A stretch of DNA of 64,000 bases from Chiloscyllium plagiosum (lineage: Eukaryota): contig NC_057718.1 of the NCBI RefSeq assembly GCF_004010195.1, positions 42,794,523 to 42,858,522 of the forward strand, in the 5' to 3' direction. The notes below the pieces were generated by a model. The model saw only the letters and a list, made by a program, of their open reading frames with translations, was not told the origin of the DNA and did not search any database. Below, piece by piece: positions 1 to 55,860 of the stretch. How positions within the stretch are numbered: the stretch's first letter is position 1; each line of letters opens with the position of its first letter. A program made the position numbers and the translations under genes.

Positions 1-264
1 GACCTCTCCGCCCCCACCCCAGTCTGACCTATCACCCTCACCTTGACCTCTTTCCACCTATCACAGTTCCGACGCCCCTCCCCCAAGTCCCTCCTCCCTA
101 CCTTTTATCTTAGCCTGCTGGACCAACTTTCCTCATTCCTGAAGAAGGGCTTATGCCCGAAACGTCGATTCTCCTGTTCCCTGGATGCTGCCTGACCTGC
201 TGCGCTTTTCCAGCAACACATTTTCAGCTCTGATCTCCAGCATCTGCAGACCTTACTTTCTCCT
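1..264 (+). mobile_element. Penelope-associated terminal repeat unit (family A) with hammerhead motif, cut by the window start
   Basis: C/T-rich tract, then CTGAAGAAGGGCTTATGCCCGAAACGTCG, then GATGCTGCCTGACCTGCTG...CCAGCATCTGCAG...CTTTCTCC. The same unit recurs at 24428-25172, 27450-27610, 33095-33293 and 53821-54037. Confidence 0.8.
135..170 (+). ncRNA. Minimal type-I hammerhead ribozyme, intact core
   Basis: CUGAAGA (139-145), extra A, stem II GGGC-UUAU-GCCC (147-158), GAAA (159-162), CG, UC (165-166). The ACGU palindrome replaces helix III. Stem I is weak (ATTC/GATT with a U-U mismatch). Confidence 0.75.
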
Positions 265-2095
265 GTAAATCCAAGATAGCAAGTTGCTTTCCTGGTGCCA
301 GGGTTAAGGACATCTTAAAACGGTCAAAACGCATTGTTAAAGGGGAATGTGTGAAACTGGAATTTGTTGTACACATTGCTTGGAACGATATAGTTAGGGA
401 AAGGGTTAAGGCTTTACAGAGCGAATGTAAGAGGTTAGGGAGAAGATTAAAAAGCAGGACCTCAAAAGGCAGTAATTTCTGGTTTACTCCTGGTGTCACG
501 TTCTAATGAGAGTAGCAATAAAAAGAGCAGATAAATCAATGGCGAAAGAGATGGTGCAACGTGCAAGAATTCAGAGTTCTGGATCACTGGGAACTCTTTT
601 GGGACAGAAAAGACCTGTTCGAAAGGAATAGGTTTCACCTGAACTGGAAGGGGACCATTATCCTGGCAGGGAGATTTGCTAGTTTTATTCCGGGAACCTA
701 AAAACTATTAGAGTGGTGGTGGGAAGGATCCTAAGCAGCAGTGAAAATAGGAAGGCAGCTGAGGATGGTTCTGAATCAGAAAACAGCAACTTAATTAGAA
801 ATGGCAAATAAGAACAAGTCAGAAAAACTCTGTAGAATTAAACTGTATTTATTTCAATATTATGGGGTCTTATAGGTAAGGCTAATGAACTCAGAGCATG
901 TATGGGAATATGGGACTGGGACATCATGACTATTAGAGATATTTGGCTAAGGGAAAGACAGGACGGTCTGCTTCATGTTCCAGATTTTAAATGCTAAATG
1001 AAGGGTAGAAATGGAGGCAAGAGAGAAAGGGGAGTGGTGTTTTGATAAAGGACAACATTGCTACTATAATCAGAGAGGATGTTTCTGAGGATTGTCCAGT
1101 GAAACTATATGGGTAGAAATGCGAAAAAAGCAGTACTGTCGGCTCCTCAATAGTCAGAGGGAAATTGAGGAGCAAATATGTAGAGAGATCTCAGATTCAT
1201 GTAAGAATAATAGGGTTGTAAATTATGGAATTTTAATTTTTCAAACATTACCTGGGACTCAAATAATGTTAATGGCTTGGATAGTGAGGAATTTGTTAAA
1301 TGTGTACTGGAGAAGTTTCTTTATCAATATGCAAATATACTGACTAGGGAGGGAACAAAATGTAACCTTCTGTTAGTAAATAAGGCAGGGCAAGTGACTG
1401 AAGTGTCAGTAGGGGAACACTTTGGGACGGGTGATCATAATTCTATAAGTTATTGAAAAGAATTAGCTTCCATAAAAGTTAAAATTCTTAATTGGAATAA
1501 GGCAAACTTGAATGGAATGAGACAAGAACTTCCAAAAGTTTATCGGAATAGACTATTTGCAAGTAAAGGGATGACTGAAAATGGGAAGCTTTCAAAGTGA
1601 GATAATGAGAATTCAGAGGCATTACATTACTGTTAGAGTGAATGTAAGACTGGAAAGTATAGGGAACAATGGATGAATAAAAATGTTGAGACTCTAGTCA
1701 AGAATAAAAAAGAATCATTTTTTGATATAAACAACTAGGATGAAGTGAATCTCGAGGAGTAAAAAGAATGTAAGGGCATTGTTAAGAGGGAAATCAGGTG
1801 GGCAAAAAGGGATTATAAGATAACCTGGGCAGAAAAGGTTAAGGGTAATCCAAAAAGATTCTCCAAGCACATTAGAAGCAGGAGAACAACTACAGAAAGA
1901 ATAGGTCCCTTAAAGATCAATAACATTGAATGCGTTGAACATCAGGAGACAAGAGAGATACTAAATGAATAGTTTGCATCAGTTTTTATACTGGAGAAAG
2001 AAATCGAGGCAGGAGAACTCAGGGAAATAAATATTGATGTTTTGAAAACAGTTCACATTACGAAAGAGCAAGTGCTAGAGGTCTTTGAAAACATA

Positions 2096-2308
2096 GTTAA
2101 AAATCACACAACACCAGGTTATAGTCCAACAGGTTTAATTGGAAGCACTAGCTTTTGGAGCGACGCTCCTTCATCAGGTGGTTGTGTGATCAGATGAAGG
2201 AGCGTCGCTCCAAAAGCTAGTGCTTCCAATTAAACCTGTTGGACTATAACCTGGTGTTGTGTGATTTTTAACTTTGTACACCCCAGTCCAACACCGGCAT
2301 CTCCAAAT
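2096..2308. mobile_element. Non-coding fold-back Penelope-derived mini-element (family B)
   Basis: Perfect ~81-bp inverted arms 2095-2175 and 2193-2273 plus a one-sided tail ending CATCTCCAAAT. 12-bp TSD TTTGAAAACATA at 2084-2095 and 2309-2320. Confidence 0.88.
2143..2183 (-). ncRNA. Hammerhead motif (family B) with G12 changed to A
   Basis: Minus strand reads CAC-CUGAUGA-A-GGAGC-GUC-GCUCC-AAAA-GC-UA-GUG: stem I CAC/GUG, AGCU palindrome, GAAA changed to AAAA. A mirror copy lies on + at 2191-2220 with CAGATGA. Confidence 0.6.
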
Positions 2309-2949
2309 TTTGAAAACATAAATATGGATAAATCTCTGGGACTTCATTAAGTGTATCTCAGGATATTGTGGAAAGTTAGGGAAGAAATTACAGGGCTCCT
2401 AGCAGAAATATTTGTATAAGCTATAACCATGGGTGAGGTGCCGGAGGATAGGATAAGTTCTTGGAAGTGATTCTGAAAGATTTGGAGAGGCAAAAACTGA
2501 TGAAGGATAGTCAGTATGGTTTTGTGCAAGAGTAATCCTGTCTCACAAACTTGATTGAGTTTTTGAGAAAGTAACCAAAATGATTGTTGAGACCAGAGCG
2601 GGAGACATTATTTACTTGGATTTTAGTAAAGCCTTTGACAAGGTTCTGCAAACTCAATCAAGTTTGTGAGACAGGATTACTCTTGCACAAAACCATACTG
2701 ACTATCCTTCATCAGTTTTTGCCTCTCCAAATCTTTCAGAATCACTTCCAAGAACTTATCCTATCCTCCGGCACCTCACCCATGGTTATAGCTTATACAA
2801 ATATTTCTGCTAGGAGCCCTGTAATTTCTTCCCTAACTTTCCACAATATCCTGAGATACACTTAATGAAGTCCCAGAGATTTATCCATATTTATGTTTTC
2901 AAAATTTGGAGATGCCGGTGTTGGACTGGGTGTACAAAGGTAAAAATCA
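2262..2949. repeat. 300-bp near-perfect inverted repeat (2262-2562 and 2650-2949)
   Basis: Reverse-complement match with only one substitution and one 1-bp indel seen; 87-bp spacer. The duplicated ORF-track peptides (2347-2529 minus and 2584-2865 plus) reflect it. Confidence 0.95.
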
Positions 2950-3095
2950 GTAAAGTTAGATCACATGGGATTCAGGATGAGCTTCCCAATTGGATGTAAA
3001 ATTGGCTTAATGGTAGGAGGTAGAGGGCAGTAGTGGAGGGTGATTTTTCAGACCTGTGACCAGTGGTGTTCCACAGGGATTGGTACAGAGTCCTT

Positions 3096-9975: not shown

Positions 9976-9989
9976 AGTGAGAATCTAAC

Positions 9990-14751: not shown

Positions 14752-14951
14752 ATGATTTGGAGATGCCGGTGTTGGACTGGGATGTACAAAGTTAAAAATC
14801 ATAGGTTATAGTCCAACTGGTTTAATTGGAAGCACACTAGCTTTTGGAGCACTGCTCCTTCATCCCCTTGATGAAGGAGTGGCTCTTCACAAGCTAGTGT
14901 GCTGCCAATTAAATCTTTTGGACTATAACCTGGTGTTGTGTGATTTTTAAT
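14752..14951. mobile_element. Fold-back Penelope-derived mini-element (family B), older copy
   Basis: Same sequence as 2096-2308 in the opposite orientation, with diverged arms and two decayed hammerhead motifs (about 14837-14864 minus, 14869-14897 plus). 9-bp TSD TCTGGGGTT at 14743-14751 and 14952-14960. Confidence 0.85.
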
Positions 14952-15934
14952 TCTGGGGTTGAGATACTGGGTTTTATGAAGGGAAAGAAAACAAAAAGTC
15001 AACAGTTGAGAGTTCAGAATTACTTTGGATTGGGTCCAGTAAATTAGGAATAATAATATTAAGTATATATGTGAAACATGTTTTTTAGTTGTGTTAAAAA
15101 TAGAAGAGGAAAATTTTGCTATGTAATTTTAAAATATGCCTACAAAAAATAGTGTTTAGTCAATTGTGATTTTCATCTGTTTGTTACAGTGAAAGTCTTA
15201 AAATCTTAATTGTTTTTGTGTCTTCCTTTCAACTATCAACTGGAAATTGAATTGTCTTTTTAAAGATTAACACAGTCTCGACGGAGATCATAAATGGGTT
15301 TAGCATTATCTGCCTCAGCATTCACTGTCCTTAGCTGTGTGTTCTGTAGCACTGACCATTCAATGCAGCATAAATAAACTCAATGAAGTAGGAAATGCCA
15401 CTTGGCCCAGCAAGTCCATTTATTTTGCAATCTATCCCATTACAGTTTCTAAATCATCATTTAATTTCCTCTGAGAAATATCTGATTGTCAAGGCAAATG
15501 AACTGAACTGCAGATGATCTGGCTATCCCAACAAATCTACTATTTAATCTGTTCTTGCTTTGAATCTGTTCTACACATCTTCTGTTCCCTGAAAGACAAA
15601 CTCTCCGAGGGTATATGGTATGATTTAGTGGTCTCAACACAGCGCTTCATGTGATAGCAGAATATATCAAGAATTGGGGCAGGGAGGTGAATGTGTTATT
15701 TTCCATGCACCATAGATATATGCTCCCATTAGGCAAGGTGAAAGTCTATCAATACTAAATAGTAAAATTTATCCCTAATCTCATTCAAGGCTTGTTAATT
15801 TTAAACCTCCCCCAGGATTTGCTTCCTACTCTCCCAGTGAAAAGTTTAGTGCCTGCTTTTTTATTGCTGTTGTCAAATCTTTGCTCAGGTTTCAACAATG
15901 TTAGCACAGGTGACTGCTTTTAGAAAAAATGATC

Positions 15935-16270: not shown

Positions 16271-18756
16271 CTCAGAAATATTTAATTTTTCTGTATGAAA
16301 TAGGAAAATGTTCAAATCACCCCATTAACTCACACACACATCCCTTGCATATGTCCCTTTCTATGTTGTGCAGAATGCAACATACTGCCATTATTCTACA
16401 GAGGTTACCCCTCAGCGCACATAGAATTAACAAGTTTGACGTTCCTATCCAACTCAGCAAATTAAATCACAGAATATACTGCATTTAATTTTCATTCCCA
16501 TGTTTCACCCATATACACCCTCGAGTGACTTAAGCACAAAGAAACTTGACAATTTGACTTGAGCTGTGACCAGCTGATAGAATCAGAGAAAGGCAGCCTA
16601 CCACACATTCGCTGGTTCTGTCCTTCAACTGGCTCCATATACTCTAATTCATTTTTCCTACTCCCTTTAATATTCATCTTCTTCAAATACATATACAATC
16701 CCTTTTCAATTCATACAATACTTTCTCTCCAATACCCATTTGTGGCAACATTTTTTTTGCTGAAAATGTAGACACTAAAAATTGCTGAATTCCATCTCCC
16801 CCACCATCGTTCTTCTCCTTAGTCTACTACCCCTGAATACTGAGTCACACAATTTAGCACTTTTTACCATTTCAAAACCTTCCGTAATTCTTAAACCTTT
16901 GTTAGATTTCACTCTGAAGCTGTTCTAATCTGGTGTAGAAGGTAAGTTATCAAGCCATTCTTTAAGAATAGAATTTCTCATTTCAGGTATTCTTCAAATG
17001 AAACTTTGCTGTATCCTCTCCATTGTTTCAGCGTATTTCCTATAATAGGGTGCCCAAAGCAGCAAGGAGGCAATCAGACTCTGAAATGACCAATATTTTG
17101 CTCCTTCCTTTACATCCAATGACTCAAAGTTACTTTTGTCTTTCATATAACATTTCTAATCTATGGATCTCTTGTACAGAACTCCCTCTTCTTGGATCAT
17201 TAAGACTTTTAAAATTTAATCTAATTAGCAACTTTGTCAAATATAAGCCACTCAATTATTTGTACTAATTTGCTATGCAATATCGCTATATATTTTCTTA
17301 ACTGAACAGTCTTCCTCATAATTTGTTTTTGCCTATTAATTTATTAGAATCAGTAATCTGGGTATCATTTGTCCTTTATTTGCAAAGGCCAGCAGCAGTC
17401 TGGAAGATTGGGAGACTTTTAGAGATCAAAGTTCCCAAAAATGTATTATAAAGAACAAAAATAAATAATGAAAGAAAACTAGCACAAAATATTAAAAATG
17501 TATAGTAAAAGCACCCATAAGTATGTAAAAGTAACGAGAATAGCTGAAGGGAATGTTGGCTCTTGGAGGATGAGACTAGGAAATAATAGTGGAGACATTA
17601 AATCAATATTTTTAACAGTGGGAGACAGTAGTACCATCCCAGTATAAACAGGTGATGTAGAGGTTTTAGAAAGAGAGGAATTTACATCAATCATCATTAC
17701 TAGGGAAGAAGTAGTGAACAAGCTATTGGGATTGAAGGCAGACAAGTCCACAGGGTCGGATGGCCTATTTCCTAGAGTCTGAAAAGATGTGGCAACATAG
17801 ATGGTAGATCCATTGGTTATAATGTACCAAAATATTCTTGATACGGGATAAGTATGTGGATTGCTAAATAACTGATGTAATGTACTTATTCCAAAAGGGA
17901 GGAGGGCAGAAAGTAGGAAACTACAGAGCAGCTAGTTTAATCTGTCATTGGGAAATTTTTGGAATTCATTATTAGGTAAATAATAGCAGGACATTTGGAA
18001 ATTCAAAGTGCAATCCATCAGTAAGCCCATTTTTATGAAGGATAAATCACGTTGTTAGAGTGCTTGAAGATGTAACAAATAAAATGGATAATTGGGATCC
18101 AGTAGATGGAGTATATCTAGATCTCCAGAAAGCACTTGATAAGGTGCCACAAAAAAGTTAATATGTAAGATAAGACCAAATGGGGTTAGGGTTAATTTAT
18201 TAGTTTGGACAGGCAATTAACTAACCAACACAAAGTAGAGAGTAGGGATAAATGGGTCTTTTTCTTGTTGGCAAGGCTCAACTATTCAGAAAAGTTATAC
18301 AAGGATGTTGCCAGGGTTGTAGAGTTTGAGCTGGTGGGATAAGCTAAATAGGCTGGGGCTATTTTCCCAGGAGTGTCAGAGCTGATGGTGACCTTGATAT
18401 GGTTTATAAAATCATGAGGGGCATGGGTAGAGTAAATAGACAAGGTCCTTTCCCTGGAGTTGGGGAATCCAAATCGAGAGTGCATTGGCTTAGGGTGAGA
18501 GGGCTAAGTTTTAAAAGGGACCTAAGGTGCAACTTTTTCACGCAAATGGGTGGTGCATGTATGGAATGAGCTGCCAGATAAAATAGTGGAGGCTGATACA
18601 ATTACAACATTTAAAAGGTAACTGGATGGGTATATGAATAGGAAGGATTAGAGGAACATGGGCCAAGGGGGATTAGATTAGCGAGTTTTGAGAAGATTTA
18701 TAGCTCAGGTTGAGGTTCTGAATGTAGGTTTGCTCGCTGAGCTGGGAGGTTCATTT

Positions 18757-18796
18757 CCAGATGTTTTATCACCCTAATAGGTAACATCTTCAGTGG
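18757..18796 (-). ncRNA. Decayed hammerhead motif in the Penelope terminal repeat (family C)
   Basis: CCA-CUGAAGA-U-GUUACCU-AUU-AGGGUGAU-AAAA-CA-UC-UGG; stem I CCA/UGG; CpG-type changes from GAC-GAAA-CG-UC. Confidence 0.6.
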
Positions 18797-18919
18797 GCCT
18801 CAGGTGAAGCAGTGTACATGATTCCTGCTTTCTATTTATATGTTTGGATTTCTTTGGGTTGGTGATGTTATTTCCTGTGGTGATGTCATTTCCTGTTCTT
18901 TTTCTTAGGGGATGATAGA

Positions 18920-19637
18920 TGGGGTCTAACTCGATGTGTTTGTTGATAGAGTTCTGGTTAGAATACCAATGCTTCTAGGAATTCTCATGTGTTCTCTGTT
19001 TGGCTTGTCCTAAGATGTATTGTGTTGTCCCAGTCAAAGTGATGTCCTTCCTTATCTGTATGTAAGGATACTAGTGAGAGAGGGTCATGTCGTTTTGTGG
19101 CTAGTTGGTGGTCATGTATCCTGGTGGCTAGTTTTCTGCCTGTTTGTCCAACGTAGTTTTCGTTACAGTTCTTGCACGGTATTTTGTAAATGACATTAGT
19201 TTTGCTTGTTGCCTGTATAGGGTCTTTCAGGTTCATTAGCTGCTGTTTTAGTGTGTTGGTGGGTTTGTGGGCTACCACAATGCCAAAGGGTCTGAGTAGT
19301 CTGACAGTCATTTTGAAGATGTCTTTGATGTAGGGGAGAGTGGCTAGGGTTTCTGGACGTGTTTGTCTGCTTGTTTGGGTTTGTTGCTGAGAAATCGGCG
19401 GACTGTGTTCACTGGGTACCCATTCTTTTTGAATACACAGTATAGGTGATTTTCCTCTGCTCTGCATAGTTCCTCTGTGCTGCAGTGTGTGTTGGTTTGT
19501 TGAAATAATGTTCTGATGCAGCTTTGTTTTTGGACGTTGAGATGATTGCTTTTGTAGTTCAATATTTGGTCTGTACGTGTTGTTTTCCTGTAGACACTGG
19601 TTTGAAATTGCCCCCTTGACTGTCCGCTCTACTGTGA
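18920..19637 (-). pseudogene. Penelope-like RT C-terminal region and GIY-YIG endonuclease, frameshifted
   Basis: NYKSNH...SCIRTLF...FKKNGYP (ORF 19344-19562), then LPYIKD...NVIYKIPCKNCNENYVGQTGRKLATRIHDH...HHFDWDNT (ORF 18985-19716). Confidence 0.92.
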
Positions 19638-19759
19638 CTATCACCCCCTGAGAAAAAGAACGGGAAATGACATCATCACAGGAAATGACATCACCAACCC
19701 AAAGAAACCCAAACATATAAATAGAAAGCAGGAATCATGTACACTGCTTTGCCTGTGTC

Positions 19760-19799
19760 CCACTGAAGATATAACCTAGTAGGGCGACAAAACATCTGG
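19760..19799 (+). ncRNA. Decayed hammerhead motif in the inverted Penelope terminal repeat (family C)
   Basis: CCA-CUGAAGA-UAUAACCUAGUAGGGCGAC-AAAA-CA-UC-UGG. Confidence 0.55.
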
Positions 19800-20964
19800 A
19801 AATGAACCTCTCAGCTCAGCGAGCAAACCTACATCCAGGGATTAGATTAGGTTAGGATTATCTGGTCAGCATGGACAAGTTGGACCAAAGGGTCTGTTTT
19901 GGTGCTGTACATCTCTGTGACTCTACTTGGTGCCACAGGGTTCAGTTCTCATGTCGCAACTATTTATAATCTATGTTAAGGACTTTGATGCAGGGATAGA
20001 AGGTACTCTAACCACATTTGCAGATAACATTAAATTAAGTTGGAAAGTAAGTTGGAATAAAGAAAGAAGAAATGTAGACGTGGATATGAATAGGGGAAAG
20101 TTTGGCAGAGGGAGTTTAATATGGATAAGTGTGAGGTTATCCATTTTGATTGTAAGAATAGAAAGACAACTTTTTATCTAAATGGAGAAAAACTTTAGAA
20201 TACGTTGGTGTCGAAGATATGGGTATCCTTCTGCATGAATCACAGAAGACTAGTCCATAGGTGCAGCAGGTAATAAGGAGTGCAAATGGAATGTTGACAT
20301 TGATTGAAAAAGGAATACAGTATAAGGGTAGAGAAGTGTTGCTGCAGCTGAATAAGGCATTTGTGAGACTGCATCTGGAGTATTGGGTATAACTTTGTCT
20401 TTTATGCTTGAGGAGGGATGTAGTTGCACTGAATGCAGTCAGAGGAGTTTTACTAAATTGATTCCAGAGATGAGAGTTTGTCTTATGAAGAGAGATTGAG
20501 GAGTTAGGTCTTTATTCTCTCAAGTTTTGAAGAATGAGAGGAGATTTATTGGGGGTATATAAGAGGTAGATGTGGAGAAGAAGCTTCTTCTTGTGGGTAG
20601 CCTGGGCACAGAGGTCACAGTTTTAGAATAAGGATAGCAGATTTAAAACGGAAAGGAGGAGAAATTGATTTTCTGAAAGGATTGTGCATCCATGGAATTT
20701 ATTGACCTCAGAGTGTAAGTAAATTTAAGAAGCAATAGACTGATAGTTAGTAATGCGTCTAAGGGTTATGGAGACCGAACAGGAAAATGGAGTTGAGGCT
20801 AAAATTAAGTCAAACATAATCATATTGAATGGTGGAGTAGGCTCGAGAGATTGAATTGGATACTTCTGCCCCTATTTGTTACGTTATGTTGTAATATTAT
20901 AAGTACACAAATTTTAAGAAGTTCAGGGCACACCAATTTAAGTCCCCTTGCCATTTCTAATAAG

Positions 20965-24427: not shown

Positions 24428-25172
24428 GGAGAAACTGAGGACTGCAGATGCTGAAGATCAGAGTCAAAGGGTTTGGTGCAGGAAAAGCACATCAGGTCAG
24501 GCAGCATCTGAGGAGCAGGAGAATCGACATTTCGAGCACAAGCTCTTCATCAGAAAAGAGGGGGTGGCCCAAGGGGGCAGAGAGATAGATGGGAGTGGGG
24601 TGGGACTGGGGAGTGAAGGCAGCTGGGAATGTGATAGGTAGACAAAGGTGAAGGTGATGGTGATAGGTTGGAGAGGAGGGTGGAGTGGATAGGTGGGAAG
24701 GAAGATGGACTATTATGACAGTTCAAGAATGCAGTGCCGGGCTGGAAGGTTGCATCTGGGATAAGGTTGGGGTGGGGGAGGCGAAACGGGGAAACTGGTG
24801 AATTCCATATTACTCAGGATCGAGGTGGATTTCACCATCGATGCCGAGTAATGTGAATTTCACCAGTTTCCTCATTTCCCCTCCCCCCACCTTAACCCAG
24901 ATCCAACCTTCCAACTTGGCACCGTCCTCTTGAACTGCCCATCTTCCTTCCCATCTATCCGCTCCACCCTCCTCTTCAACATATCACCTTCACCCCTACC
25001 TTCATCTACCTATTGCATTCCCTGCTACCTTCCCCCACCCTCCTCCCATCTATCTCTCAGCCACGTTGAGCCACCCCTCATTCCTGATAAAGAGCCTATG
25101 TTCGAAACATCAACTCTCCTACTCCTCGGATGCTACCTGACCTGTTGTGCTTTTCCAGCACCACACTCTTCA
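24428..25172. mobile_element. Large fold-back Penelope-derived element (family A) with two opposing hammerhead motifs
   Basis: Imperfect inverted arms about 24455-24815 (G-rich) and 24845-25172 (C-rich). Ribozyme motifs at 24521-24556 (minus) and 25084-25112 (plus, CTGATAA and GAAACATC, decayed). Confidence 0.82.
24521..24556 (-). ncRNA. Minimal hammerhead motif, core nearly intact
   Basis: CUGAUGA-A-GAGC-UUGU-GCUC-GAAA-UG-UC-GAUUC. Stem II is GAGC/GCUC against GGGC/GCCC in other copies, a compensatory pair change. Confidence 0.68.
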
Positions 25173-27177: not shown

Positions 27178-27445
27178 TAGAGTAGATTACCTACAGGCTC
27201 TTCAACCCATCAAGTCCACACGACCCTCCAAAGAGTAACCCACCCAGACCCAATTCCCCTCTGGCTAATGCTGCTCACACCACAGGCAATTCACCTGCCT
27301 GGCACATCTTTGGACTATGGGAGGAAACCCATGCAGACACGGGGAGAATGTGCAAACTTCACACAGTGACCCAAGGCTGGAATTGAACCTGGGACCCCGG
27401 TGCTGTGAGGCAGCAATGCTAACCACTGAGCCACCATGCCAACCC
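27178..27445 (-). mobile_element. HE1-type SINE
   Basis: Reverse strand of GGCATGGTGGCTCAGTGGTTAGCATTGCTGCCTCACAGCACC...GGTTCAATTCC, with V-SINE-like core and CR1-like tail. Confidence 0.88.
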
Positions 27446-27449: not shown

Positions 27450-27610
27450 GTCAATAGATATGCAGCTGGAAAAGCACAGCAGGTCAGAAAGTATCTGAGG
27501 AAATGGAATATCAACATTTTGGACTCAAATGCTATCTGACGTTTTGTGCTCTTCCAGCTTCACATCTATTGACTCTGACTTCCAGCATTTGCAGTCCTTA
27601 ATGTCTCCTA
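27450..27610. mobile_element. Short fold-back family A element with the centre deleted
   Basis: CAATAGAT...GCTGGAAAAGCACA pairs with TGTGCTCTTCCAGC...ATCTATTG; tail CCAGCATTTGCAGTCCT. Confidence 0.7.
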
Positions 27611-30475: not shown

Positions 30476-31669
30476 AATTCTATAGCACTAATACTTAAAG
30501 ATGTGAACAATACTTATAATGGTTTAATTAGGCTGAGCCAGTCAGGACAGTTTTGGACTCCTAGAAGTCTGACTTGTCTGTTACTAAGGTCTGTACCGAG
30601 AATTATTTTATAATAAACACATGATTGCTGTTTTGAAACAGATTTGCATGATCCCGTATTTGCTCTCACTTACAATAGAATCAAATATTGTGGTCATGGA
30701 CAGCATTCTTGAATCCTTAAAACATTTATCTTAGTCACTTTTTTGAAGAAGCGTGGTATCAGATTTCCCAAGAAATGTTTGCGGCAATTACATTTAAAGG
30801 AGTCAATTCCTCTTCTTCACTTCGACCTATAATATTTAAAATTACAATTAAGAATGATAAGAAATACAATCAAAAATCCTGGAAATACTCAGTATTTCTG
30901 GCAGCATCTGTGAGGGAAGAAAACAAAATTATTGTTCCAGGTCTGCAGAGACAGAGAGATAGAGGGAGTTTGATTGTCTTTTCATTTAGAAAACTTCTTT
31001 GCACAGTTGTAGCAACAGTTGGGAAGCTATCATGTTAGTCTCTCGAAGGTAGTAAGGACAAAAACTGTTGATGTTTCCATTTCCAGATTGCTTTTCGTTA
31101 GCCTCTGTGGAAAGAACATTTCTGTAGTTGTCAGGTTGGAACAGGAATAGGTGCAGCTGTGATTATCTCTATCGTCAAAATGCCCATTTGAAATCAGACT
31201 TACAGATAAAGACTAGGCATGTGGATGAGATATCAGAGTGCTGTATGTGTTTATTCAACTGTATTGTAGACACATTAATTTCTGGTTGAGGCAGTTAGCA
31301 AATGGAGAAAATTGTAGATGATTTTATAGATAATGAGAAACAACATAAATGCGTGGCTAGTAATATATCTACCTGGTGTGGTGTCTGTTTAAAAGTGTGT
31401 CTCAGGAAAGTGGTACAATGCCATATCTCTAGGTCAGTCTTGCCTCCACAGTGTGATTGGATCAAAATAACAGGGCAGGGAGTATGTGGGGACAGCAGAC
31501 TAGCAGACAATTTTGAGGCATTGTTGTAGTTTGGCAGGAGATCAAGTTTTATATTTACCAATATTTAAATATCTTGTAATTTTAAAATATACCATATTCT
31601 TAGTGCTTCAGTCTGCTGAGTTTGCATTTTAGAGTGACGTGCATTAAAGGAATTATTCTTCCTCCTTTT

Positions 31670-32635: not shown

Positions 32636-33094
32636 ATAAAGCTCGAGGAAGTAGACAAGATAATTAATTGAATAAAACACATCAGAGGTCAAGTTGTTTA
32701 AGTCTGTAACCTATCTTTGAACACAGGTAGGGGATGTTACAGTGCAAAGCTCAGGTGTAGCTCACACAAGCTCTTTTACATTAGCTCATTTAACCACTTG
32801 TCACTTGTTGCCTGTTGAGTTCTGTAATTGATTATTTTAATGATAAAGTAGTTTAGTTCTTCACATTTTATTGAAAATGGAACCAACAATTTGGCCTAGA
32901 CAGTTCATGTTACAGGAAGTTTGATGTGCCAGCTTGGTGGGGTGCAGTTTTCTCCTTCTGCATGTTTGAGAGTGAGTTCTTAATTGTAACCTGTTCAATT
33001 GAGGAAATGTACTTTTAAAGAGTTAAATGCAGTTAAGTGAATCAGGGAGAGAAAGAGAAAGAAAACCAAATATTCAGTCATACGTATAGACAAG

Positions 33095-33293
33095 TAGAAA
33101 GTGAGGACTACAGATGCTGGAGAGTCAGAGTCGAAAACTATGACACTGGAAAAACCCTTCATCATGAAAAGTCTATGCCCAAAACGTCGACTCTCCGGCT
33201 CCTTGGATGATGCCAGACCTGCTCAAAATACATGCATAGATAATTGTATGCTATTGTTGCAGTGCTTTTTCCAGCACCACACTTTGTGACTCT
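33095..33293. mobile_element. Decayed fold-back family A element
   Basis: AAAGTGAGGACTACAGATGCTGGAG head; decayed ribozyme ATGAAAAGTCTATGCCCAAAACGTCG; TTTTCCAGCACCACACT. Confidence 0.7.
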
Positions 33294-36200
33294 ATGACTC
33301 ATACAAATAGGCTGTCCACTGTGGGTTACAGAGAGATTTAGTTCAATTGCTTTTTTGCTACCTTGGTCAAGGAATAATGGCTGGTGCTGGGAAAGATCTT
33401 AAATTGAACACAAATATGAATCCATCAGAAGACTAACATATCTGGTAGACCACTCTTCCTAGTAAAGTTAAGATTGATGCTGTACCAGTAACACTACACT
33501 TTACTAAAGCAGCCACATTTTCCATTAGATAATGCTGCTCTAAAAAATCAAATCTTATAGGCATTACTCAAACCAGTTGCAATCAGTTATATAAGCACAC
33601 TAGGAGGAAAATTGAATGTGGGGTCAATATGATCATTTTTCTGTTCTCTTGTGCATTAATCCAAACTTCCTTCATTTTTGATGATGACAACTGTCACTGC
33701 AGAGAAGGAAAAAATCAACTAGCTGACTGTAAAATATTTGGCTGCGACCAGTAGGTATGTAATTGGATAACTGCTGTGGTAACACTGCTTTCAGTTACCA
33801 TCAATGGCAAAATCCCCCAGAAGATATTAATTGGACTAGATTTAAAACAAAATTAAAAATTAAATCTGTATAGATCAATGTAAAGGCATTGTATGATGCC
33901 CTGACACTATAATTTGGATTGAACTTTCACTGATTAATTATTATAAGAGTTTGCACTGCAACAATAGCATACAATTATCTATGCATGTATTTTGAGAATG
34001 CAAAAACTAAACCTGTAAACACCTACAAACTAGTAGCCTTTTGAAATTTCCTGTTTCATAAAGATAACGGAAATGTCAGAAATCATTACATAAGTTCAGC
34101 AGTGGTGCCTTGTATTTTTGTTATATGTCAGAACCATCAGATTGCAATTCCCTTCCCTGTTGAGACTGACAAAGGTGGAAAGGAGTACATTAAAGTGTAT
34201 TTATCCACATTGAAATCTGTTCTAATCAGTCTTAAGGTATCAATTTCAATTGAATAAATGTGAAAGATACTTTAAGAAAATGGATAGAGAATAGTGAATC
34301 TAATAGAATTCCATTATATTTTACACTGAAGAGTTCTGTAGCATTATTATTAAAAGGCAGTACTCCTTCTTGCACTTTCCAAGTGCTTGTGAAAATTTAA
34401 CCCAGCTGCAAGTAATAAACAGTTCTCTATTTAATGCATCCCACTTATAGGATTTACTGGCTTCAGCAAAAGTTAGCAGAATTCCGTTATGATGTTTTGT
34501 GCAAATTGCTTATTTCTGAAATGACTACTATGCTTTTAAAGGAAGATGATAACCTAATTTTAATTTTTTGTAAATAGTTAATAGAGTTCCATTCAGCAGT
34601 CAGTTATTTGCCCAAATTCTCCTTCGTGTTTGTGCAAGTATTTCAAGTTGTTTTAATATGCAGCTGTGGATGGAATTAACCTTAGTTTGTAAAGCATGCA
34701 CAAAAATGACTTATATATTCCTATATAATCACAGGACCTCTTTTTCTAGCAAGAAACACTAGCTAAGATGCCTAAGGCCAGAATCAGTTTTAAATAATTT
34801 CCACAACTATGCAGTGTATTTGAAATGTTACACACAGGGACGAATCTCCAATGCAGAAACTTGCTGTAGTTTATTCGTGCAATATTTGTTTTACCTTAGA
34901 ATTCACATTTAAGCAAGATTAAAATAAATTCTGCTCTGGCTGAAATACTCTTCTGTCAGTCAGTTAAAACTTTTGTTTAATCCTGGAGTATAAAGCAAGT
35001 TGAAAGCATTTCAGTTTTATCTGGAATATTGGGGCTACAGCCTCAAGACATTGATCTGGTTTTGACTGGCAACTTGCCTCCGCAAATGGAGGAAGCAGAT
35101 TGCCTCTTGCCTGCATGCTCCGAAGAGGTACTGATTTAATAACAGTGGACAAGCGGCTGGGAGCTGGGCTGTCAGCCTGTCACAGGCTGACAAATCTGTT
35201 GTTCATATGCAGGCAGGGTGCACTGATAGACTGCCATCATTGGCATCCAACCACTGCAGGCACGCAAACGTTAGCAAGCTCTCCAGCACTCAGCAATACT
35301 CCTCTCATCTTTGTTTCCTTTGAGAGCATCAGAGAAAAAAAAGACATCAACCCACATCTCAAGAGGGTCACTTATCAATGATGGAGATATTGAGTTGGAA
35401 TTGTCAGTCACTGCTGAATCTTCCATTAAGTGCTGAAGTGATCAAAAAATAAACCAGTAAGTTATTAAAGAAACGATATAAACAAAGACAGTGTTTTGCA
35501 AGTGTCAAAAATGAAACCCACATAGCTTTGTCATAACCTTGATATTTATGGTAAGGATAAACACTTAATCAAATAACTTGATAAAATCATGATGTATATT
35601 TGCAATATTATGGTTATTTGTCTGTAAATGGTTGTCAAAACCGTTGTGTTAATCAGAAAGTATGAATGTTATTACCAATAGAAATGAAATGTGAAATAAG
35701 GTCTATAAACATACTTATCCTCCATTTCCTGTTACATTTATTATTTGGCATCCTGTTCCAGCTGGAAACGAAGTAAGACAGTGTGTATCATAGACTTTTG
35801 CCTTATTGCTAGAAATGAAACAAAGCAGCACTTAAATAAGTTGGATGGACACTTTATGTCCATATGGTACTCTATCTGGAATCTGGGCCAAGAAATGCAA
35901 AAGTCACCTACTTAGGGCAAGTGAGTTCAAATACCATATAGTCCCGAGGCTTAAACTCTCAACCTTCTGTTTCAGAATCAAGCATTGACCCATTTCAGCT
36001 GGTAGGTCACATTACCAACAAGTACATTTGATTAACATATGTGCAGAATTGGACAACAACTATCCATAGGGATTCCTTATTTAGGCACAGGTAGGTATTT
36101 ATCAATTTTTTTGATATTTAGATTGAAGTTTCAAAAATGATATCAGTTGACTTTTAATCATTTTATTTTGAAGATGCTCAGACATTACATATTCATTGTT

Positions 36201-41340: not shown

Positions 41341-41871
41341 CTCAAACACCAGGCTCGAACAAGGAATGTAAGAAAACTAACAATGCCATAACATTTTCTC
41401 TTGCTCACTTTAAGCATCCCATTTGGATGAAAGAAGCTGACTGGTAATCATTTTGCTAACGACATACTTTCTTCCCCCACCGCCCCATTCCCATCAGGTG
41501 CAGAGCTGCAGCTCCAGACTCTTAAAGGGCTACAAGCTGAAAAGTATCAGTTTTACATTTTACAGCATAACTGCATAAAGCATCCACTGTTGGGTCTTCA
41601 TGTTGCAAACTATGAAGGGGGCTGCTCTTTGCCTATAAGACTGTATAACAGGCCACTTGATGCCATCCACTTAAACAGATGCCTCCCTGTAGACACACAA
41701 TGTGCCTTACTTGGGCTTCAACACTACATAACCTCTGCCTTTTCTGGCTCCTGTCCTCAGTGTGTCAACTTAGAAAAGTTGGACACGGCATTTAGTCCAA
41801 TGGCAATTCTTGTCAGACTTTTTCCTGGAGTGCATTGAAGCAGTCCAATTCATCCATGCCGACGAGATGTT

Positions 41872-42290
41872 TTGAAATAGACTCTGTCTATTTATCCTAT
41901 CTATGCCCCTCATGATTTTATGAACCTCTATAATGTCACCCCTCAGCCTCCGATGCTTCAGGAAAAACAGCCCCAGTCTATTTAACCTCTCCCTATATCT
42001 CAAATCCTCCAACCCTGGCAACATCATTGTACATCTTTTCTGAACTCTTTCAAGTTTCATAACATCTTTCTGATAGGAAGGAAACCAGAATTGCACACAA
42101 TATTCCAAAAGTGGCCTAATCAATGTCCTGGACAGCCACAACATGACCTCCCAACTCCTGTACTCAATATTCTGACCAATAAAGGAAAGCATACCAAACA
42201 CTTTCTTCGCTATCCTATCTAATTGCAACTCCACTTTCAAGGAGCTATGAACTTTATCCAAATACCTGAAATAGCTCTTCAACAACCAAT
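41872..42290 (-). mobile_element. CR1 LINE RT C-terminal fragment with open frame
   Basis: ORF 41770-42285: LIRPLLEYCVQFWFPSYQKDVMKLERVQKR...RLRGDIIEVHKIMRG. Confidence 0.92.
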
Positions 42291-42829
42291 GATTCCTTCA
42301 GTTATTAGTCAGTATACACATGAATGTGAGTGTACCTTTTCTCTGCCTAGCCTGTCGGATGCAGTGGGATGTTAGCAACCACAGCAGCAGGTTTTATGCT
42401 TTGTCACCAATTATCTGTTCTTCCACCAGATACCCATTCCTGAGCATTCATGCATGTATTCAATATCTGACACTTCTGCAATTGTAAGGGCAAAGTTGAG
42501 CGAACAGGCCAACAATATAAGTGCCTCATTTAGACCTCTTCATCCTCTGTCACCAAGTTACTTGGTGCCCATTATGGATTACTTTGTATGATGTGGGAAA
42601 GAGCCTTGAGCCCATGGAGGGTATAGTCTCTCATCATCATCCTCTCAAGCCAATTCTTTAGCGTCTTGAATGAGGCTTATATTATTGGACTCCAAATCTG
42701 AATGACAGCAGACACAGTGCAGACTAACAAACCTGCATCTTCCCTTCCACTCTCAATCCTCAAGACACATCCTCAGATCATCGTGGAACTCTCATTCATT
42801 CCACAGTGGATACAGCCTCCTCAACCTTA

Positions 42830-49699: not shown

Positions 49700-50053
49700 G
49701 GGCAGCATGTGGCAGAGTGGTTAGCACTACTGTCTCACAGCACCATGGATCCAGGTTTGAATCCAGCTTTGTGTGACTGTGTGGAGTTTGCATGTTGTCC
49801 CTGTGTCTGCATGTATTTCCACCAGGTACTCCAGTTTTCTCCCACAGTCAAAGATATGCAGGTTAGATGGATTGGTCATGCTAAATTTCTCCATAGTGTC
49901 ACAGAGATGTGCAGGCTAGATGGATAAGGTGTTAGAAATGCAGGGTTATAGGGAAAAGGGTAGGGAGCTGGGTTTGGGTGGGATGCTCTTTGGAGAATCA
50001 ATGCACAGTAGATGGGCTGAATGGCTCTTTTTGCACTGTAAGAATTCTATGAT
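49700..50053 (+). mobile_element. HE1-type SINE, near full length
   Basis: GGGCAGCATGTGGCAGAGTGGTTAGCACT (A box), GGTTTGAATCC (B box), CTGTGTGGAGTTTGCA core, CR1-like tail GCACTGTAAGAATTCTATGAT. Confidence 0.88.
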
Positions 50054-50129
50054 ATCATCTTTATGGGGTAATGCTCAATGCAATCAATCAGTTACTTCAG
50101 ACACAGATATAAGTTTTTATCCTAAAATA

Positions 50130-51319: not shown

Positions 51320-52239
51320 TTCAGTGAGAGGCTATAGTGTGACCAAGAGAATTCATGAGTTCTTGCATGAGCAGCGCGTAAGACCAAAGACAGAAAAGCC
51401 AAGGTGGAAATGAGGTGTGGTGGAGGGTTAGGGGATAGGCGTTGAATAGCATGGTTTGAAGGCATGAGCCACAGGACAGTGAAGTGAGGAGAACATTTGT
51501 GGACAGAACAAATTTTAACATAGAAACTTTTGAATAGTTTCCCTGATCTAGAATTAACAGGACTATAAGAAGTGAGGACTAGTGTTTTGCAAAGAGATCA
51601 TCTTAAAGCTAATCTGTGCATTTCTACAAAGGCGTTCTCCTGGACATATGCCTCAAGGCTACAGGCTCCACAAATACATAGACTATGCTTCTTCCTCTTC
51701 ATGCTCCCACAAACGTTTAATACAATGCAACCAATTTTTCCGTCTTTGCCTGAAAAAAATGCATTTTCTACACTCTTCTTCAGTCTAGATAGTTCTTTGA
51801 TTCTATTTTATCAAGGTCCATAAGCATATCTAGATACCATTCTGCTCTCACCTTCTCCATCTAAATGATCCATTTAGAAATGACAAGGCCTCCCCCACCC
51901 TGTTTTCATCTTCCATCCCCACTAGCCTCCAGATGATCTGTGATTTCTATTAGCTTTAAGATCTCTTGACAAAACACTGGTCTTCATTTCTTATAGTCCT
52001 GTTAATTCTAGATCAGGGGAACTATTCAAAAATGTCTATGTTAAAATTTGTTTCATCAACAAATGTTCTTCTTACCTCACTGTCCTGTGGCTCATACCTT
52101 CAAACCATGCTACTCATCCCTCATCCCTCGACCTTCCACCACACCTCATTTCCACCTCGGCTTTTCTGTCTTTGGTCTTATGCGCTGTTCATGCAAGAAC
52201 TCATGAATTCTCTTGGTCACACTATAACCTCTGACTGAA
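51320..52239. repeat. ~290-bp diverged inverted repeat (51320-51613 and 51949-52239)
   Basis: Reverse-complement match with scattered mismatches; near-identical ORF-track peptides at 51321-51521 minus and 51966-52238 plus. Confidence 0.92.
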
Positions 52240-52444: not shown

Positions 52445-53235
52445 GGTAACTAGTATGCTGGCCTTCACAGTTAGAGGATCCAAGTACAGAAGCAGCGATG
52501 TCTTGTTGCAAGTACAGAGGGCATTGACGAGACCAGACATGGAATATTGAGTGCGGTTTTGATCTCCCTATCTAAAGAAAGATGTTCTTGCTATAGAAGT
52601 GAAGATTTACTAGACTGATTCCTGGGATTGTATGATTGATGTATGGGGAGAGGTTGAATCAATTTAGGATTTTATTTGCTAAAGTTCAGAAGAGTGAGGG
52701 GTGGTATCTCATAGACAGGGCCAATTGCTGGAAGAAGGTTTTGATGATGTAGAGACCAGAACCAGAGGTCACAGTTTAAGGATACAGGGCACACCATTTA
52801 GGACTGAGATGAGGAACTATTGCTTTACTCAGAGTGGTGAGTCAGCCAAGCAGTCAAGGCCAATATATTAACTGTAACAATTGTGGATGCTGTAAATCAG
52901 AAACAACTGAAGTTGCTGGAAACCTCAGCAGGCCAGGCAGCATCTGTGCAGAAAAGTCAGAGTTAACATTTCAGGTCCAGTGCCCCTTCCTCAGAATCTT
53001 CACAGATGCTGCCAGATCTGCGGAGCTTTTCCAGAAACTTCTGTTTTTGTTTATGAAGGCCAAAATATTGTATGCTTTCAAGAAGGAATTGGATATAGCA
53101 TGTGAGAGTCAAGGGATCAATGGATTTGGGGGAAAGGTAGGAACAGCTTTTGATATGGATGATCATAATAAATGGCAGGGCAGGCTTCAAGGGCCAAATG
53201 ACCTATTGCTTACTCATATTTTCTCTGGTTCTATG
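52445..53235 (+). mobile_element. Decayed CR1 3' region with nested fold-back element
   Basis: GAGACCAGACATGGAATATTG, AGAACCAGAGGTCACAGTTTAAGGATA, and 3' UTR GGGCCAAATGACCTA. Confidence 0.8.
52870..53055. mobile_element. Fold-back family A-related mini-element with hammerhead motif at 52960-52996 (minus)
   Basis: 14-bp TSD AAGGCCAA(T/A)ATATT at 52856-52869 and 53056-53069. Minus strand UU-CUGAGGA-A-GGGGC-ACUG-GACCU-GAAA-UG-UU-AA. Confidence 0.78.
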
Positions 53236-53820
53236 TTTCCAGGGAACCTAAAAGTGTCAGCTGTGTGATGTTATTTACTTCCCAGTTTTCAGATCTGATG
53301 AATCTACACCCAAAATAATTCTGTTTTTTGATTTTTATGTGAAGCATTGATATTGTATTCTGCTTGAATTTATCAACTTGTGTGCAGTAGATTTTTGCAG
53401 CATCCTGCAGTACCAAATGTTGTCACTGCCCACATTAGTCATTGTCAGAATTGCCTTTTTGGAGAATGGATGGGCTGGGAGGAATGTTGTTTTGGTCAGT
53501 CAATGTCAAGGAAGATGATATTAGTTAGTGGCATAATGACATTGAACTGTTTTTGACGAGCTCTGGTTACAGACTGATGTTAGTTGCCTTTCATTTTTGC
53601 ATGGTCTTTAATAGCACTGTGTTATTTGGATCAAGGCTGAAGGCCTTCAACTACTGGTAGTTTCATTTAGAGTAGCATGACTGATATAATTGGTGTTCTT
53701 TTATATATCAGTCAGATTCCTTGTTCAGACAGATATCTTGAAGTTTATTAACAACACTAAACGCTTACATGGCTCCTATTTCACAGATTTACACACATCA
53801 TCTGGATTCTAAATTTATTG

Positions 53821-54037
53821 ATTTGAGAGTGTGGTGCTGGAAAAGCACACCAGGTCACGCAGCATCCAAGAAGCAGGAGAATCGACGTTTCAGGCAAAAC
53901 TTACCAGAATTCTGATGAAGGGCTTTTGCCTGAAACGTCAATTCTCCTGCTCCTCAGATGCTGCCCAACCTGCTGTGCTTTTCCATTACCACACTCTCGA
54001 CTCTAATCTCCAGCATTTGTAGTCCTCACTTTCACCC
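53821..54037. mobile_element. Fold-back family A mini-element
   Basis: 13-bp TSD TCTAAATTTATTG at 53808-53820 and 54038-54050; arms about 53825-53899 and 53924-53998. Confidence 0.88.
53906..53945 (+). ncRNA. Minimal type-I hammerhead ribozyme, best-formed copy
   Basis: Stem I AGAAUU/AAUUCU (6 bp), CUGAUGA (53912-53918), A, stem II GGGC-UUUU-GCCU, GAAA, CG, UC; predicted cut after C53939. Confidence 0.78.
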
Positions 54038-54883
54038 TCTAAATTTATTGGTGTTACTGGACATTATACACACATGTAACTGACTAATTTAATACATTAC
54101 ACTGACTCCATGATACATAGAGTGTGTCTAAAGTTGAAGAAGGTACATTTATACCAGAACATCACATGTTGTGGTATCATGTAACCATCTTAAAAGTACA
54201 GGCCTGACTGGTCTGGAATCTGTACCATGATGCAACAGTTGCAGAGTATAGCAGGCAACCAAGATCCAGGACATTGGTGGGTTGTATTTCAATAATTCAC
54301 CAGACAATAGAAGTGCTTTTTCAGTAGCCCGTTCCAAAAATGGTGACCAACCTGCTGTTGGTCATCTGTTGAAAGGTATTAGTGCATGTGTGTCATGCAT
54401 ATGCTGGGAACATGCAGAGTGACAGGATGTAACACCACTCAGAATGCAACTCTGATTTGGTGCTGGACTTGACATTTGGATCACACATGTCCTATCAATG
54501 CCCTCATGAGAACCCTGCCTGTTTTATTTCAAAGCCTTAGCAGGGGCTTCTTTCGAATTAAAAAGATGGTTACAGTAAAGAACAGGGTCCCTTAATCCTG
54601 ACATGTCCTTTGATTTATTAGGACCTTGTATGTGTGAAGAGGTTTTCCCTCCTGTTACCATTTATTCTTCTGCCATTCACTTTAAAATGGTGTCCTCCAC
54701 TTATCAATCCTTCTATCAATGGGAAATGTTTCACCCTATCTATCTTCCAAAAGCCATCATCATTTTCCATACAGCTAGTGGATTTAATCTCAGCTTTCTC
54801 TTCTCTAAGGAAAACAGAATCAACTTCTCCAGCCCATCTACACAGCTGATGAATCTCATTCTGGGGTAATTCTCACATATCTA

Positions 54884-55224
54884 TAGATTCCCTACAGTGT
54901 GGAAACAGACCTTTTGGCCCAACAAGTCCACACCAACCCTCCAAAGAGTATCCCACCCAGACCCATTCCCCCTACCCTATAGTTACTCCTGACTAAAAGG
55001 CCTAACTTACACATCCTGAACACTATGGGCAACTTAGCATCGCCAAATCACGTAATCTGCACATCTTTGGATTGTGGAAAGAAACCGGAGCACCTTGAGG
55101 GAACCCACATAGACACATGGAGAATGTGCAAACTCCACACAGACAGTGTCCCGAGGCTGGAATCAAACCCAGGTCCCTGGCACTGTGAGGCGGTAGTATT
55201 AACCACTGAGCCACTGTGCCGCCC
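54884..55224 (-). mobile_element. HE1-type SINE, full length
   Basis: Reverse strand of GGGCGGCACAGTGGCTCAGTGGTTAATACT...GGTTTGATTCC...; tail CCACACTGTAGGGAATCTA. Confidence 0.9.
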
Positions 55225-55364
55225 CATTGTACTCTACTCCTTTGCCTTCATTCTCCTCATTAATGTGGTTCACAGGTTTGAACACAATGGCCTGGATTTT
55301 CATAGAGACAGCAGACTCTGTGGCAGGTGAAAGAGTGTCACATTGTGAGCCTGACTGACTATGA

Positions 55365-55860
55365 TAACTTGTGTGAAGAATTACACCGACAACTGATTTA
55401 GGATTGTCAGTTGGGCTTGGAGTATGACACAGTTTTGTGTACTAGATTCTATACATATTAGTACACAAGGCCTCATTCTTGATAGATAGAAGGAACATCA
55501 ACACACATTGCCTGTTTCAACTCAACAAAATAGGTAACAGCCATTTGTTTGTTCATTTCTCAAGACAGTGCTCTGACTACTCAGTCAATCTGCCAGGCTT
55601 AAAATGTAAGCAAAGCATTGTAGTGATCTGTTAACATCATTTATTGATACATTCTCCATGGCACTGACTCTCCCAAGCAGAGTCCACTTGTCCATGTGCT
55701 AATCAGCATATTCCTTTCACACAGTCTAAATATTACTGTTCTCCTTGAATTGATATTCTTGCAAATTGTCTGGATGAGTGCAATATGAAAAGTTTTCACA
55801 ACATGTCTCTTTTTCAACAATAGTCAAGTTCTGTATAACCAAATGACTATTTGTAAAACT
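55365..55860 (+). mobile_element. Old Penelope-like 3' end with decayed hammerhead (family D)
   Basis: FRIVSWAWSMTQFCVLDSIHISTQGLILDR*KE resembles the GIY-YIG C-terminus; TTGTC-TGGATGA-GTGCAATAT-GAAA-AGTTTT-CACAA at 55766-55801. Confidence 0.5.

Follow-up and report, generated by a model that had tools for sequence, protein, structure and literature searches.

Penelope-like elements of metazoans are known to carry minimal hammerhead ribozymes in their pseudo-long terminal repeats (Cervera and de la Pena, 2014; PMC4209133), and the function of these hammerheads in the elements was still considered unclear by Craig et al. (2021; PMC8557442). Elements of the Neptune and Penelope/Poseidon clades combine a reverse transcriptase (RT) with a GIY-YIG endonuclease at the C terminus, and have an inverted 5'-truncated partner and a 30-40 bp tail, features shared by the elements described here (Arkhipova et al., 2013; PMC3846280; Craig et al., 2021). 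In the case of the Anolis carolinensis Poseidon element PAc, the protein cuts a nick in each of the two DNA strands and extends both, begins reverse transcription at an internal point of the RNA, works on uncleaved RNA and helps its ribozyme (Frangieh et al., 2024; PMC11167929). [quoted passage not shown] These papers are cited for the portions of their text that were covered. Here we analyzed a stretch of 64,000 nucleotides from the shark Chiloscyllium plagiosum (NC_057718.1, positions 42,794,523 to 42,858,522, forward strand; "the window") together with its 3.56 Gb assembly. We consider it probable that the hammerheads found there belong to the 3' terminal repeats of Penelope-like elements, and that the remnants were reverse-transcribed from uncut RNA, from the tail to a likely 5' start.

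A hammerhead in a Penelope terminal repeat is an arrangement known since 2014; the scale and the breakpoint pattern are what our literature searches did not show. The shark copies resemble the elements of Cervera and de la Pena (2014) in the core, the extra base before G10.1, the G10.1-C11.1 pair, the palindromic positions 15.2-16.2 and, only marginally, the short stem I, as well as in their position in a terminal repeat and in occurring mostly as solitary truncated copies with some opposite-strand pairs. Stem I, for which that paper gives 4-5 bp (2 bp in D. virilis), contains a U.U mismatch in the commonest family of the shark, and where cleavage and circles as template were proposed there, the breakpoints described below argue for an uncut linear RNA as the source of the short copies. 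The portions of that paper that were covered, and one of its two supplements, mention no shark. With PAc the shark elements share two fixed 3' ends that form the tail and the absence of RNA reads ending at the cut site, and probably also extension of both target strands and an unprocessed RNA as the main template. The PAc work concerned one Poseidon element in vitro, and its portions covered hold no 5' breakpoint map, whereas here tens of thousands of genomic junctions, mostly from Neptune-type families, are available. The passages of Craig et al. (2021) and Arkhipova et al. (2013) that were covered do not describe the very high share of 90-135 nt inserts from one start point. Non-LTR retrozymes, in turn, form tandem arrays with a hammerhead in each unit and a maximum of 14,255 copies (axolotl), in contrast to the dispersed singles or inverted pairs of the shark (Li, Clavereau and Pollet, 2026).

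Origin and fold of the hammerhead families

A first-pass annotation of the window had listed 14 positions as hammerheads of at least four unrelated repeat families, mostly in non-coding elements of the kind commonly annotated as unknown repeats or short interspersed nuclear elements (SINEs). All 14 were read, and the 64-kb window was aligned to references of four families, A to D; 13 of the 14 sites have a family alignment. There is little doubt in our view that all four families are the 3' ends of Penelope-like retroelements. In every family the sequence upstream of the copies reaches the end of a GIY-YIG gene (at loci L174 and L055 for B, L194 for D, and at L118 and in the window for C). Locus L374 contains, in order, an RVT_1 domain (Pfam E 1.8e-6, narrowly missing the cut-off), a C-x4-C-x2-C linker, a GIY-YIG domain (E 8.7e-5) and an A-type hammerhead. 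The order RT, GIY-YIG and hammerhead is also seen in two loci of C types, L116 and L139, while in families B and D the link covers the endonuclease end only. A first look at the genome gave 41,383 candidates for A-type RT and 73,306 for C-type endonuclease. The copies are truncated 3' ends of protein-coding Penelope-like retroelements, and a reading as independent non-coding or SINE-type elements is given up. The description of the four families as unrelated is wrong in part, since the tails of A and D are homologous when the consensus sequences are compared and all four families lie behind Penelope-type GIY-YIG genes.

The linker motif C-x2-5-C-x2-C, common to Neptune and Nematis (Craig et al., 2021), is matched in family A as CNRRRCNTC (L374, L376) and occurs as a decayed trace in family B (L174), whereas it is absent in family C; the linker of family D was not seen. 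Judged from such motifs, and not from a tree, family A would be Neptune-type and family C Penelope/Poseidon-type. Two 3' end points, separated by 32-35 nt, recur among the copies: about +63 and +98 in A, +58 and +90 in B, and +42 and +76 in C, the reference of family D being too short; positions are counted from the C of CUGANGA, which is +1, the preceding base being 0. These two end points are the known optional 30-40 bp tail of endonuclease-bearing Penelope-like elements. Five pairs in the window are each bounded by one target duplication of 9-13 bp. One of the retroelement proteins of the assembly has its closest named relatives, at 60% identity, in Stegostoma tigrinum and, at 71% over parts, in Chiloscyllium punctatum, which points to a carpet shark as the likely host.

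Loci L116, L163, L176, L171 and L152 represent further Poseidon-type subfamilies that are absent from the window; these have their own hammerhead variants, with stem II of the GUCACC/GGGGAC and GUUAUC/GGUAAU types and a different stem I. In L367 (4789-8124) a Neptune-type RT frame runs on without a stop into about 30 exact tandem repeats of 26 codons, either a minisatellite that arose within a gene of the Penelope-like kind or an artefact of the assembly.

The assignment to minimal type-I hammerheads of the Penelope kind holds for the core, the G10.1-C11.1 pair and the palindrome. Each sequence feature of the class that was tested is present apart from stem I, which is marginal, and cleavage at UH, according to the literature as a dimer through the palindrome or with help from protein, is predicted. 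Position 10.1 is G in 273 of 274 motifs although the descriptor leaves it free, and its partner is C in 240 and U in 33 (the loci being partly picked by pattern). The palindrome is ACGU in families A, C and D and AGCU in B, with CpG decay damaging many copies. Stem I has 4 bp in D and in subfamily A3, 3 bp with covariation in B and C, and 2 bp, a U.U mismatch (134 of 173 family A copies) and 1 bp in most A copies.

The expected covariation of stems I and II is found between families and subfamilies: stem II varies in length and sequence yet stays paired, the palindrome switches between ACGU and AGCU, and the strands of stem I change together. Within families, counting copies and not independent events, pair 3 of stem I in family C is U-A in 41, C-G in 39 and G-C in 8, and pair 2 of stem II is G-C in 49 and A-U in 13 copies of D, and G-C in 152 and A-U in 5 of A; most other pairs show no covariation signal. 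Pair counting over 12 family A copies found 90% of cells paired and three pairs changed on both sides, which is weak alone. Folding is uninformative for so small a ribozyme: for none of seven references was the active dimer the best RNAcofold structure, and monomer z-scores were -0.9, -2.3, -0.9, +1.4 and +0.1. A stem II GUUACC/GGUGAC, ascribed in the first-pass annotation to window copies, is the consensus of its family; the two copies in the window instead read GUUACC/GGUGAU, with G12 lost, and AUAACC/GGCGAC.

After insertion the copies decay much as unselected DNA would. The most damaged positions are CpG sites, the palindrome included, and among 173 A copies the CpG of the palindrome is hit in 74. 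It follows that the fold was selected in active parent elements, and the ribozyme in the inserted copies is likely inert.

Starting points of the copies

Breakpoints were mapped in an unbiased sample of 120 ten-kb pieces of the assembly (1,171,609 called bases; ten pieces adjoin the window), in which 144 of 209 family A fragments qualified at an identity of at least 85%. Between +10 and -10, 76 breaks fall on 1,558 nt at risk (0.049 per nt), against 4/1,296 just upstream and 17/3,822 in the tail (0.003-0.006 per nt); around the cut site the figure is 12/1,198 (0.010 per nt). In the same +10 to -10 interval, families B and D have rates of 0.034 (16/465) and 0.056 (12/216). Genome-wide, 7,337 of the 26,932 A1 copies that reach the A at -3 (27%) have a foreign base 5' of ATTC and 19,595 have the element base, while approximately 3,572 further A1 copies differ one base further on. 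Among 40 A1 junctions inspected, 20 were inverted and most others abut a target duplication with 1-4 nt of microhomology. The pile-up persists in copies without a near inverted partner (28/71), and other AT sites in A1 (+15, +47, -31) show no such peak.

Reverse transcription from the tail on RNA that had already been cut should produce copies starting at +29, and such starts are rare. The A1 tail is preceded by C17 28,032 times in the genome versus 258 times by a purine, and 20 inspected purine cases comprised six point changes, one deletion and 13 breaks, among which were several fold-backs. Once flank composition is taken into account, about 1% of copies start at the predicted cut site, and the insertions were likely copied from uncut RNA. 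The junctions would in this sense be an in vivo record in which short copies derive almost wholly from RNA that, at the neighbouring hammerhead, was uncut or did not stay cut, in agreement with the uncleaved-RNA template observed in vitro (Frangieh et al., 2024). Literature searches, with subscription journals, Repbase/Dfam entries and several supplements outside their reach, found no account of a 5' pile-up at a hammerhead.

Two further sources of the pile-up were rejected. An artefact of unknown subfamilies is small at the peak, as long copies with a substitution make up only 1/40 at the -3 break and 7/30 at the next base. A spliced leader, considered as the D. virilis intron ends at helix I, does not fit either: no exon is common to the flanks 5' of the break, which consist of unique target DNA or of the inverted arm.

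Upstream of the hammerheads each family has a conserved TATA-like box: TATAAA in B and C, TATAAAA in two of three D copies read, and TTATCT in all four A subfamilies. Relative to the core, its position is about -30 in D, between -33 and -35 in A, about -39 in B and about -46 in C. The upstream edge of the pile-up shifts in step with it across families, from about -6 (D) and -5 (A) to -9 to -13 (B) and -17/-18 (C; 31 pattern-picked copies only), and in A1 the pile-up base is approximately 30 nt downstream of the box. The peak base sits in TCATTC in family A and in TCAGTT in family D, both of which we take to fit the initiator consensus. Known promoters of such elements differ, in that the terminal repeat of rotifer Pen2a has TATA and initiator-like sequences (Arkhipova et al., 2013), and the Drosophila element has an internal promoter without TATA. 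The balance tips slightly in favour of the pile-up marking the 5' end of the RNA template, with transcription starting just 5' of the hammerhead. If true, this model would explain why many copies are ribozyme plus tail alone, and it gives a prediction at the level of single bases.

Raw single-cell poly(A) reads from one sample bear on this start. Of 12,955,460 records in run X21, 2,018 match, whereas run X22 (0/8,328,510) provides no test. The X21 reads have loose ends at window positions 135, 224 and 262-264, the same boundaries as in the genomic copies, and come from both strands; probably they derive mostly from copies inside host transcripts. Their depth shows no step and no ends at the cut site, in what is an insensitive test.

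In the mechanism that we propose, the box in TATA position and the initiator in the terminal repeat would start transcription just 5' of the hammerhead, and reverse transcription would begin at an internal start in the tail of the uncut RNA. The enzyme would run off the 5' end of the RNA, yielding inserts of hammerhead plus tail of 90-135 nt, and two cDNAs, one per nicked strand, may join into inverted pairs; the ribozyme would be under selection in active parents. A wider model can be offered only tentatively, and we regard it as doubtful. It holds that shark genomes carry the largest known hammerhead load and that the junctions record the Penelope cycle, with reverse transcription from the tail to a capped 5' end before an uncut hammerhead, resembling a strong stop. 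The hammerhead would then serve as a short terminal redundancy, the downstream cut setting the 3' terminus of the RNA; cDNA that jumps over the shared 30-odd bases would yield long copies, and failed jumps the tiny and inverted inserts in their hundreds of thousands.

Several observations weigh against the proposed mechanism. The start site is a prediction from the box and the breakpoints, the family A box TTATCT is no textbook TATA, and run X21 contains no pile-up of molecule ends, although this is a weak test. Breaks are spread across 20 nt, and around the cut site their rate is about twice the background. Family C lacks a pile-up in the unbiased sample (0/252, 14 copies) and shows one only in pattern-picked copies (8/31 between -1 and -18). 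An extra G that precedes the peak base is over-represented (61 of 100 among the matches listed; 15/28 versus 6/25 in simple insertions, p=0.048), but as most of these are encoded by the target duplication or arise at the fold-back junction it does not show a copied cap, and a cap-derived G is not claimed. An automatic test detected a target duplication of at least 7 bp in only 8 of 36 simple young copies, against a null mean of 0.4. None of 15 RT-bearing loci yielded a full-length element between two direct terminal repeats, and the assembly has gaps in 11 of these loci. Circles religated after cutting are invisible to the breakpoint test and may template longer copies. Finally, the core differs from the consensus less often than the invariant tail (28/887 versus 141/2,901, p=0.032), with rates alike per base type.

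Two competing explanations accept the Penelope origin and concern the pile-up itself. A folded or protein-bound hammerhead could cause the enzyme to drop off after copying it, on long read-through RNAs. The spread of breaks from +10 to -10, the coincidence of the A1 peak base with the last paired base of stem I and the assistance of hammerhead folding by the protein (Frangieh et al., 2024) all suit such a process. Nevertheless, the upstream edge tracks the TATA-like box across families and not stem I, and the family with the sharpest peak has the weakest stem I. Stalling at RNA structure is expected on entry, at the 3' side, where the break rate is just 0.010 per nt. Drop-off thus appears to us possible but rather doubtful. 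End-joining, through microhomology of a target ..AT with ATTC or through fold-back at the hammerhead palindromes, would require no template end at the pile-up, and we find it unlikely. It would account for the 1-4 nt microhomology at many simple junctions and for the inverted junctions (20/40 and 15/30 inspected), and the Poseidon endonuclease prefers ATT (Frangieh et al., 2024). However, there is no peak at the other AT sites of A1 (+15, +47, -31), families B and D have the pile-up although they lack ATTC, and it is also present in simple insertions.

The remaining two give the hammerheads a different role. Independent non-coding families, SINE- or retrozyme-like, that spread through self-cleaved circular RNA would agree with the lack of coding sequence in most copies and with the derivation from Penelope terminal repeats of non-LTR retrozymes, which are reported in one chondrichthyan (Li, Clavereau and Pollet, 2026). 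For the copies studied here this is largely refuted, and we hold it to be very unlikely: a GIY-YIG gene lies upstream of every family, and 5' ends are away from the cut site. A tandem retrozyme is not supported by the window copies, which are single or head-to-head without tandem units, and a tRNA-derived SINE was rejected, as the upstream sequence is Penelope 3' untranslated region (UTR) and coding sequence and ARAGORN finds no tRNA gene in the window. Use of the dispersed hammerheads by the host to cut its own transcripts could draw on the roughly 160,000 intact motifs, on family A sequence in RNA of both strands and on the slightly better conservation of the core overall (p=0.032). We judge it highly improbable, given that core and tail decay alike when compared per base type, that 74 of 173 A copies have a damaged palindrome CpG, that read depth does not step at the cut site, and that cleavage, in the portions of the literature covered, is low or depends on protein. 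The preferred explanation remains reverse transcription of uncut Penelope RNA from the tail to its likely 5' end.

Genome-wide load

The very large genomic load foreseen in the first-pass annotation is borne out. A family-free pattern (CTGANGA-N11-21-GAAACGTH), which does not test pairing and leaves out family B, has 167,821 matches in the assembly versus 1,299 for the control, and exact family patterns have 64,334 (A), 6,837 (B), 483 (C) and 354 (D) matches versus none for the reversed controls. The unbiased sample contains 368 fragments, of which 53 are intact, 53 retain the core only, 136 are broken and 126 partial; together they cover 3.9% of the sampled bases when only the short aligned stretch is counted, and the reversed sample gave no match in the same pipeline. 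By extrapolation the genome contains approximately 161,000 intact motifs (121,000-210,000, Poisson limits only) and 1.1 million fragments. The highest counts given in the covered parts of Cervera and de la Pena (2014) are about 4,000 hammerheads in coelacanth and 9,000 in Xenopus tropicalis, so that the load of about 160,000-170,000 found here is some 20-40 times these vertebrate counts, with the reservation that the descriptors differ. Literature searches with the reach stated above found no account of hammerhead counts in sharks.

These counts are decisive for the motif being real, as they are far above chance. The strict-descriptor count of the window by itself is only modestly above chance: two sites pass (139+ and 53912+), and 100 dinucleotide shuffles of the window gave no match in 94 cases, one in five and two in one. 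An Rfam scan of the window yielded no hammerhead family match at E<=1.

Head-to-head pairs hold 191 of the 368 sampled fragments. Those at window positions 2091-2277, 14803-14931 and 53820-54003 would form RNA hairpins of 60-85 bp in either direction of transcription. Such pairs produce false microRNA matches in Rfam; mir-515 and similar matches in the window are merely inverted pairs. With about half of roughly 1 million fragments paired, they are a large potential source of double-stranded RNA.

Copies and other features in the window

The 13 hammerhead-derived sites belong to family A (139+, 24553-, 25084+, 33165+, 53912+), B (2177-, 2191+, 14864-, 14869+, 28040-), C (18793-, 19763+) and D (52994-). 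Only 139+ and 53912+ are intact; the core is kept with a damaged palindrome or stem at 24553-, 28040- and 52994-, and it is broken or cut off at the remaining eight (2177-, 2191+, 14864-, 14869+, 18793-, 19763+, 25084+ and 33165+). The fourteenth listed site, 55770+ (CTGGATGAG.., 55770-55801), has neither a family match nor a stem II and was rejected as a hammerhead. Calling all listed sites ribozymes is an overstatement; in the genomic sample most copies are damaged, with 53 of 368 fragments intact. In each of four neighbouring pairs (2177/2191, 14864/14869, 18793/19763 and 24553/25084) the sites are opposite arms of a single insertion, which as judged by eye lies within one target duplication of 9-13 bp, so that the 13 sites represent nine insertion events.

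The first copy (2-264, +) is an A1 (Neptune-type) 3' end with 3' UTR, intact hammerhead and long tail, 97% identical to the subfamily consensus and extending past the window start; its core spans 139-166 and the predicted cut follows 166. The hammerhead (135-170, +) has stem II GGGC/GCCC, palindrome ACGU and a weak stem I, in which 135-138 faces 167-170 as C-G, U-A, U.U and A-U. The A at 135 is the most frequent copy start, and the TTATCT box common to the A subfamilies, a candidate TATA-position element, lies 30 nt 5' of it (105-110, +). A head-to-head pair of family A with an intact hammerhead (53912-53939) occupies 53824-54036, within a 13-bp target duplication (53808-53820/54038-54050). 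An older family A pair with 3' UTR and stem II GAGC/GCUC (24428-25169; 24553- core only, 25084+ broken) has a 9-bp duplication (24418-24426/25178-25186), and a third (33093-33223; 33165+) has a broken core. In the tail of the 33165 copy, a 38-nt piece (33222-33265) is a perfect inverted copy of DNA 700 bp off (33953-33996), resulting from a templated insertion or an assembly artefact. A decayed family A pair without a full core (27458-27609) was outside the first list.

Family B is represented by two head-to-head pairs and a single copy. The first pair (2096-2308; 2177-, 2191+), with G12 changed to A in both arms, is bounded by a 12-bp duplication (2084-2095/2309-2320), and the second (14754-14955; 14864-, 14869+), with broken cores, by one of 9 bp (14743-14751/14952-14960). 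In the single copy (27955-28042, -; 28040-) the core is kept and G10.1 changed. The end of the first pair's tail is included in a 281-bp inverted repeat (2282-2562 and 2650-2930), 100% identical and 87 nt apart, which is a very recent inverted duplication or an assembly artefact. The rest of this repeat resembles, we presume, RT DNA of the long interspersed nuclear element (LINE) type.

The family C element (18683-19838, -) is a truncated Penelope/Poseidon-type element with inverted terminal repeats, in which both hammerheads (18793-, 19763+) are broken, and it has a 13-bp target duplication (18669-18681/19838-19850). It contains the remnant of an open frame (18985-19734, -) with a GIY-YIG endonuclease at the C terminus, at about 19033-19230 (Pfam E 0.0012 and 0.00089, under the curated cut-off); tblastn also links family C to this gene. 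Family D has one pair (52894-53056; 52994-) with the core kept and the palindrome destroyed by CpG decay. A partial copy (30857-30952, -), a copy with a broken core (58128-58229, -) and a tail alone (61376-61444, -), all of family D, were outside the first list.

Other repeats in the window include inverted repeats of 280 bp (51320-51599 and 51960-52239), 89% alike around a 360-bp spacer, with no hammerhead match and no clear open frame, and a degenerate low-complexity tract of about 1.1 kb rich in TCAC/TCAA/TCAT (29350-30440). A further dispersed family (27360-27445, 49709-49852 and 55067-55225; also 27193, 46156 and 54905), in which ARAGORN found no tRNA, is presumably a shark SINE with a LINE-derived tail. 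Two open frames on the minus strand (41770-42297 and 60711-61091) have no Pfam match and, as we assume, resemble the C-terminal part of CR1-type LINE reverse transcriptases. Direct repeats of 85 bp (60501-60585 and 61504-61588), 93% alike and 1,003 bp apart, surround a LINE-like fragment.

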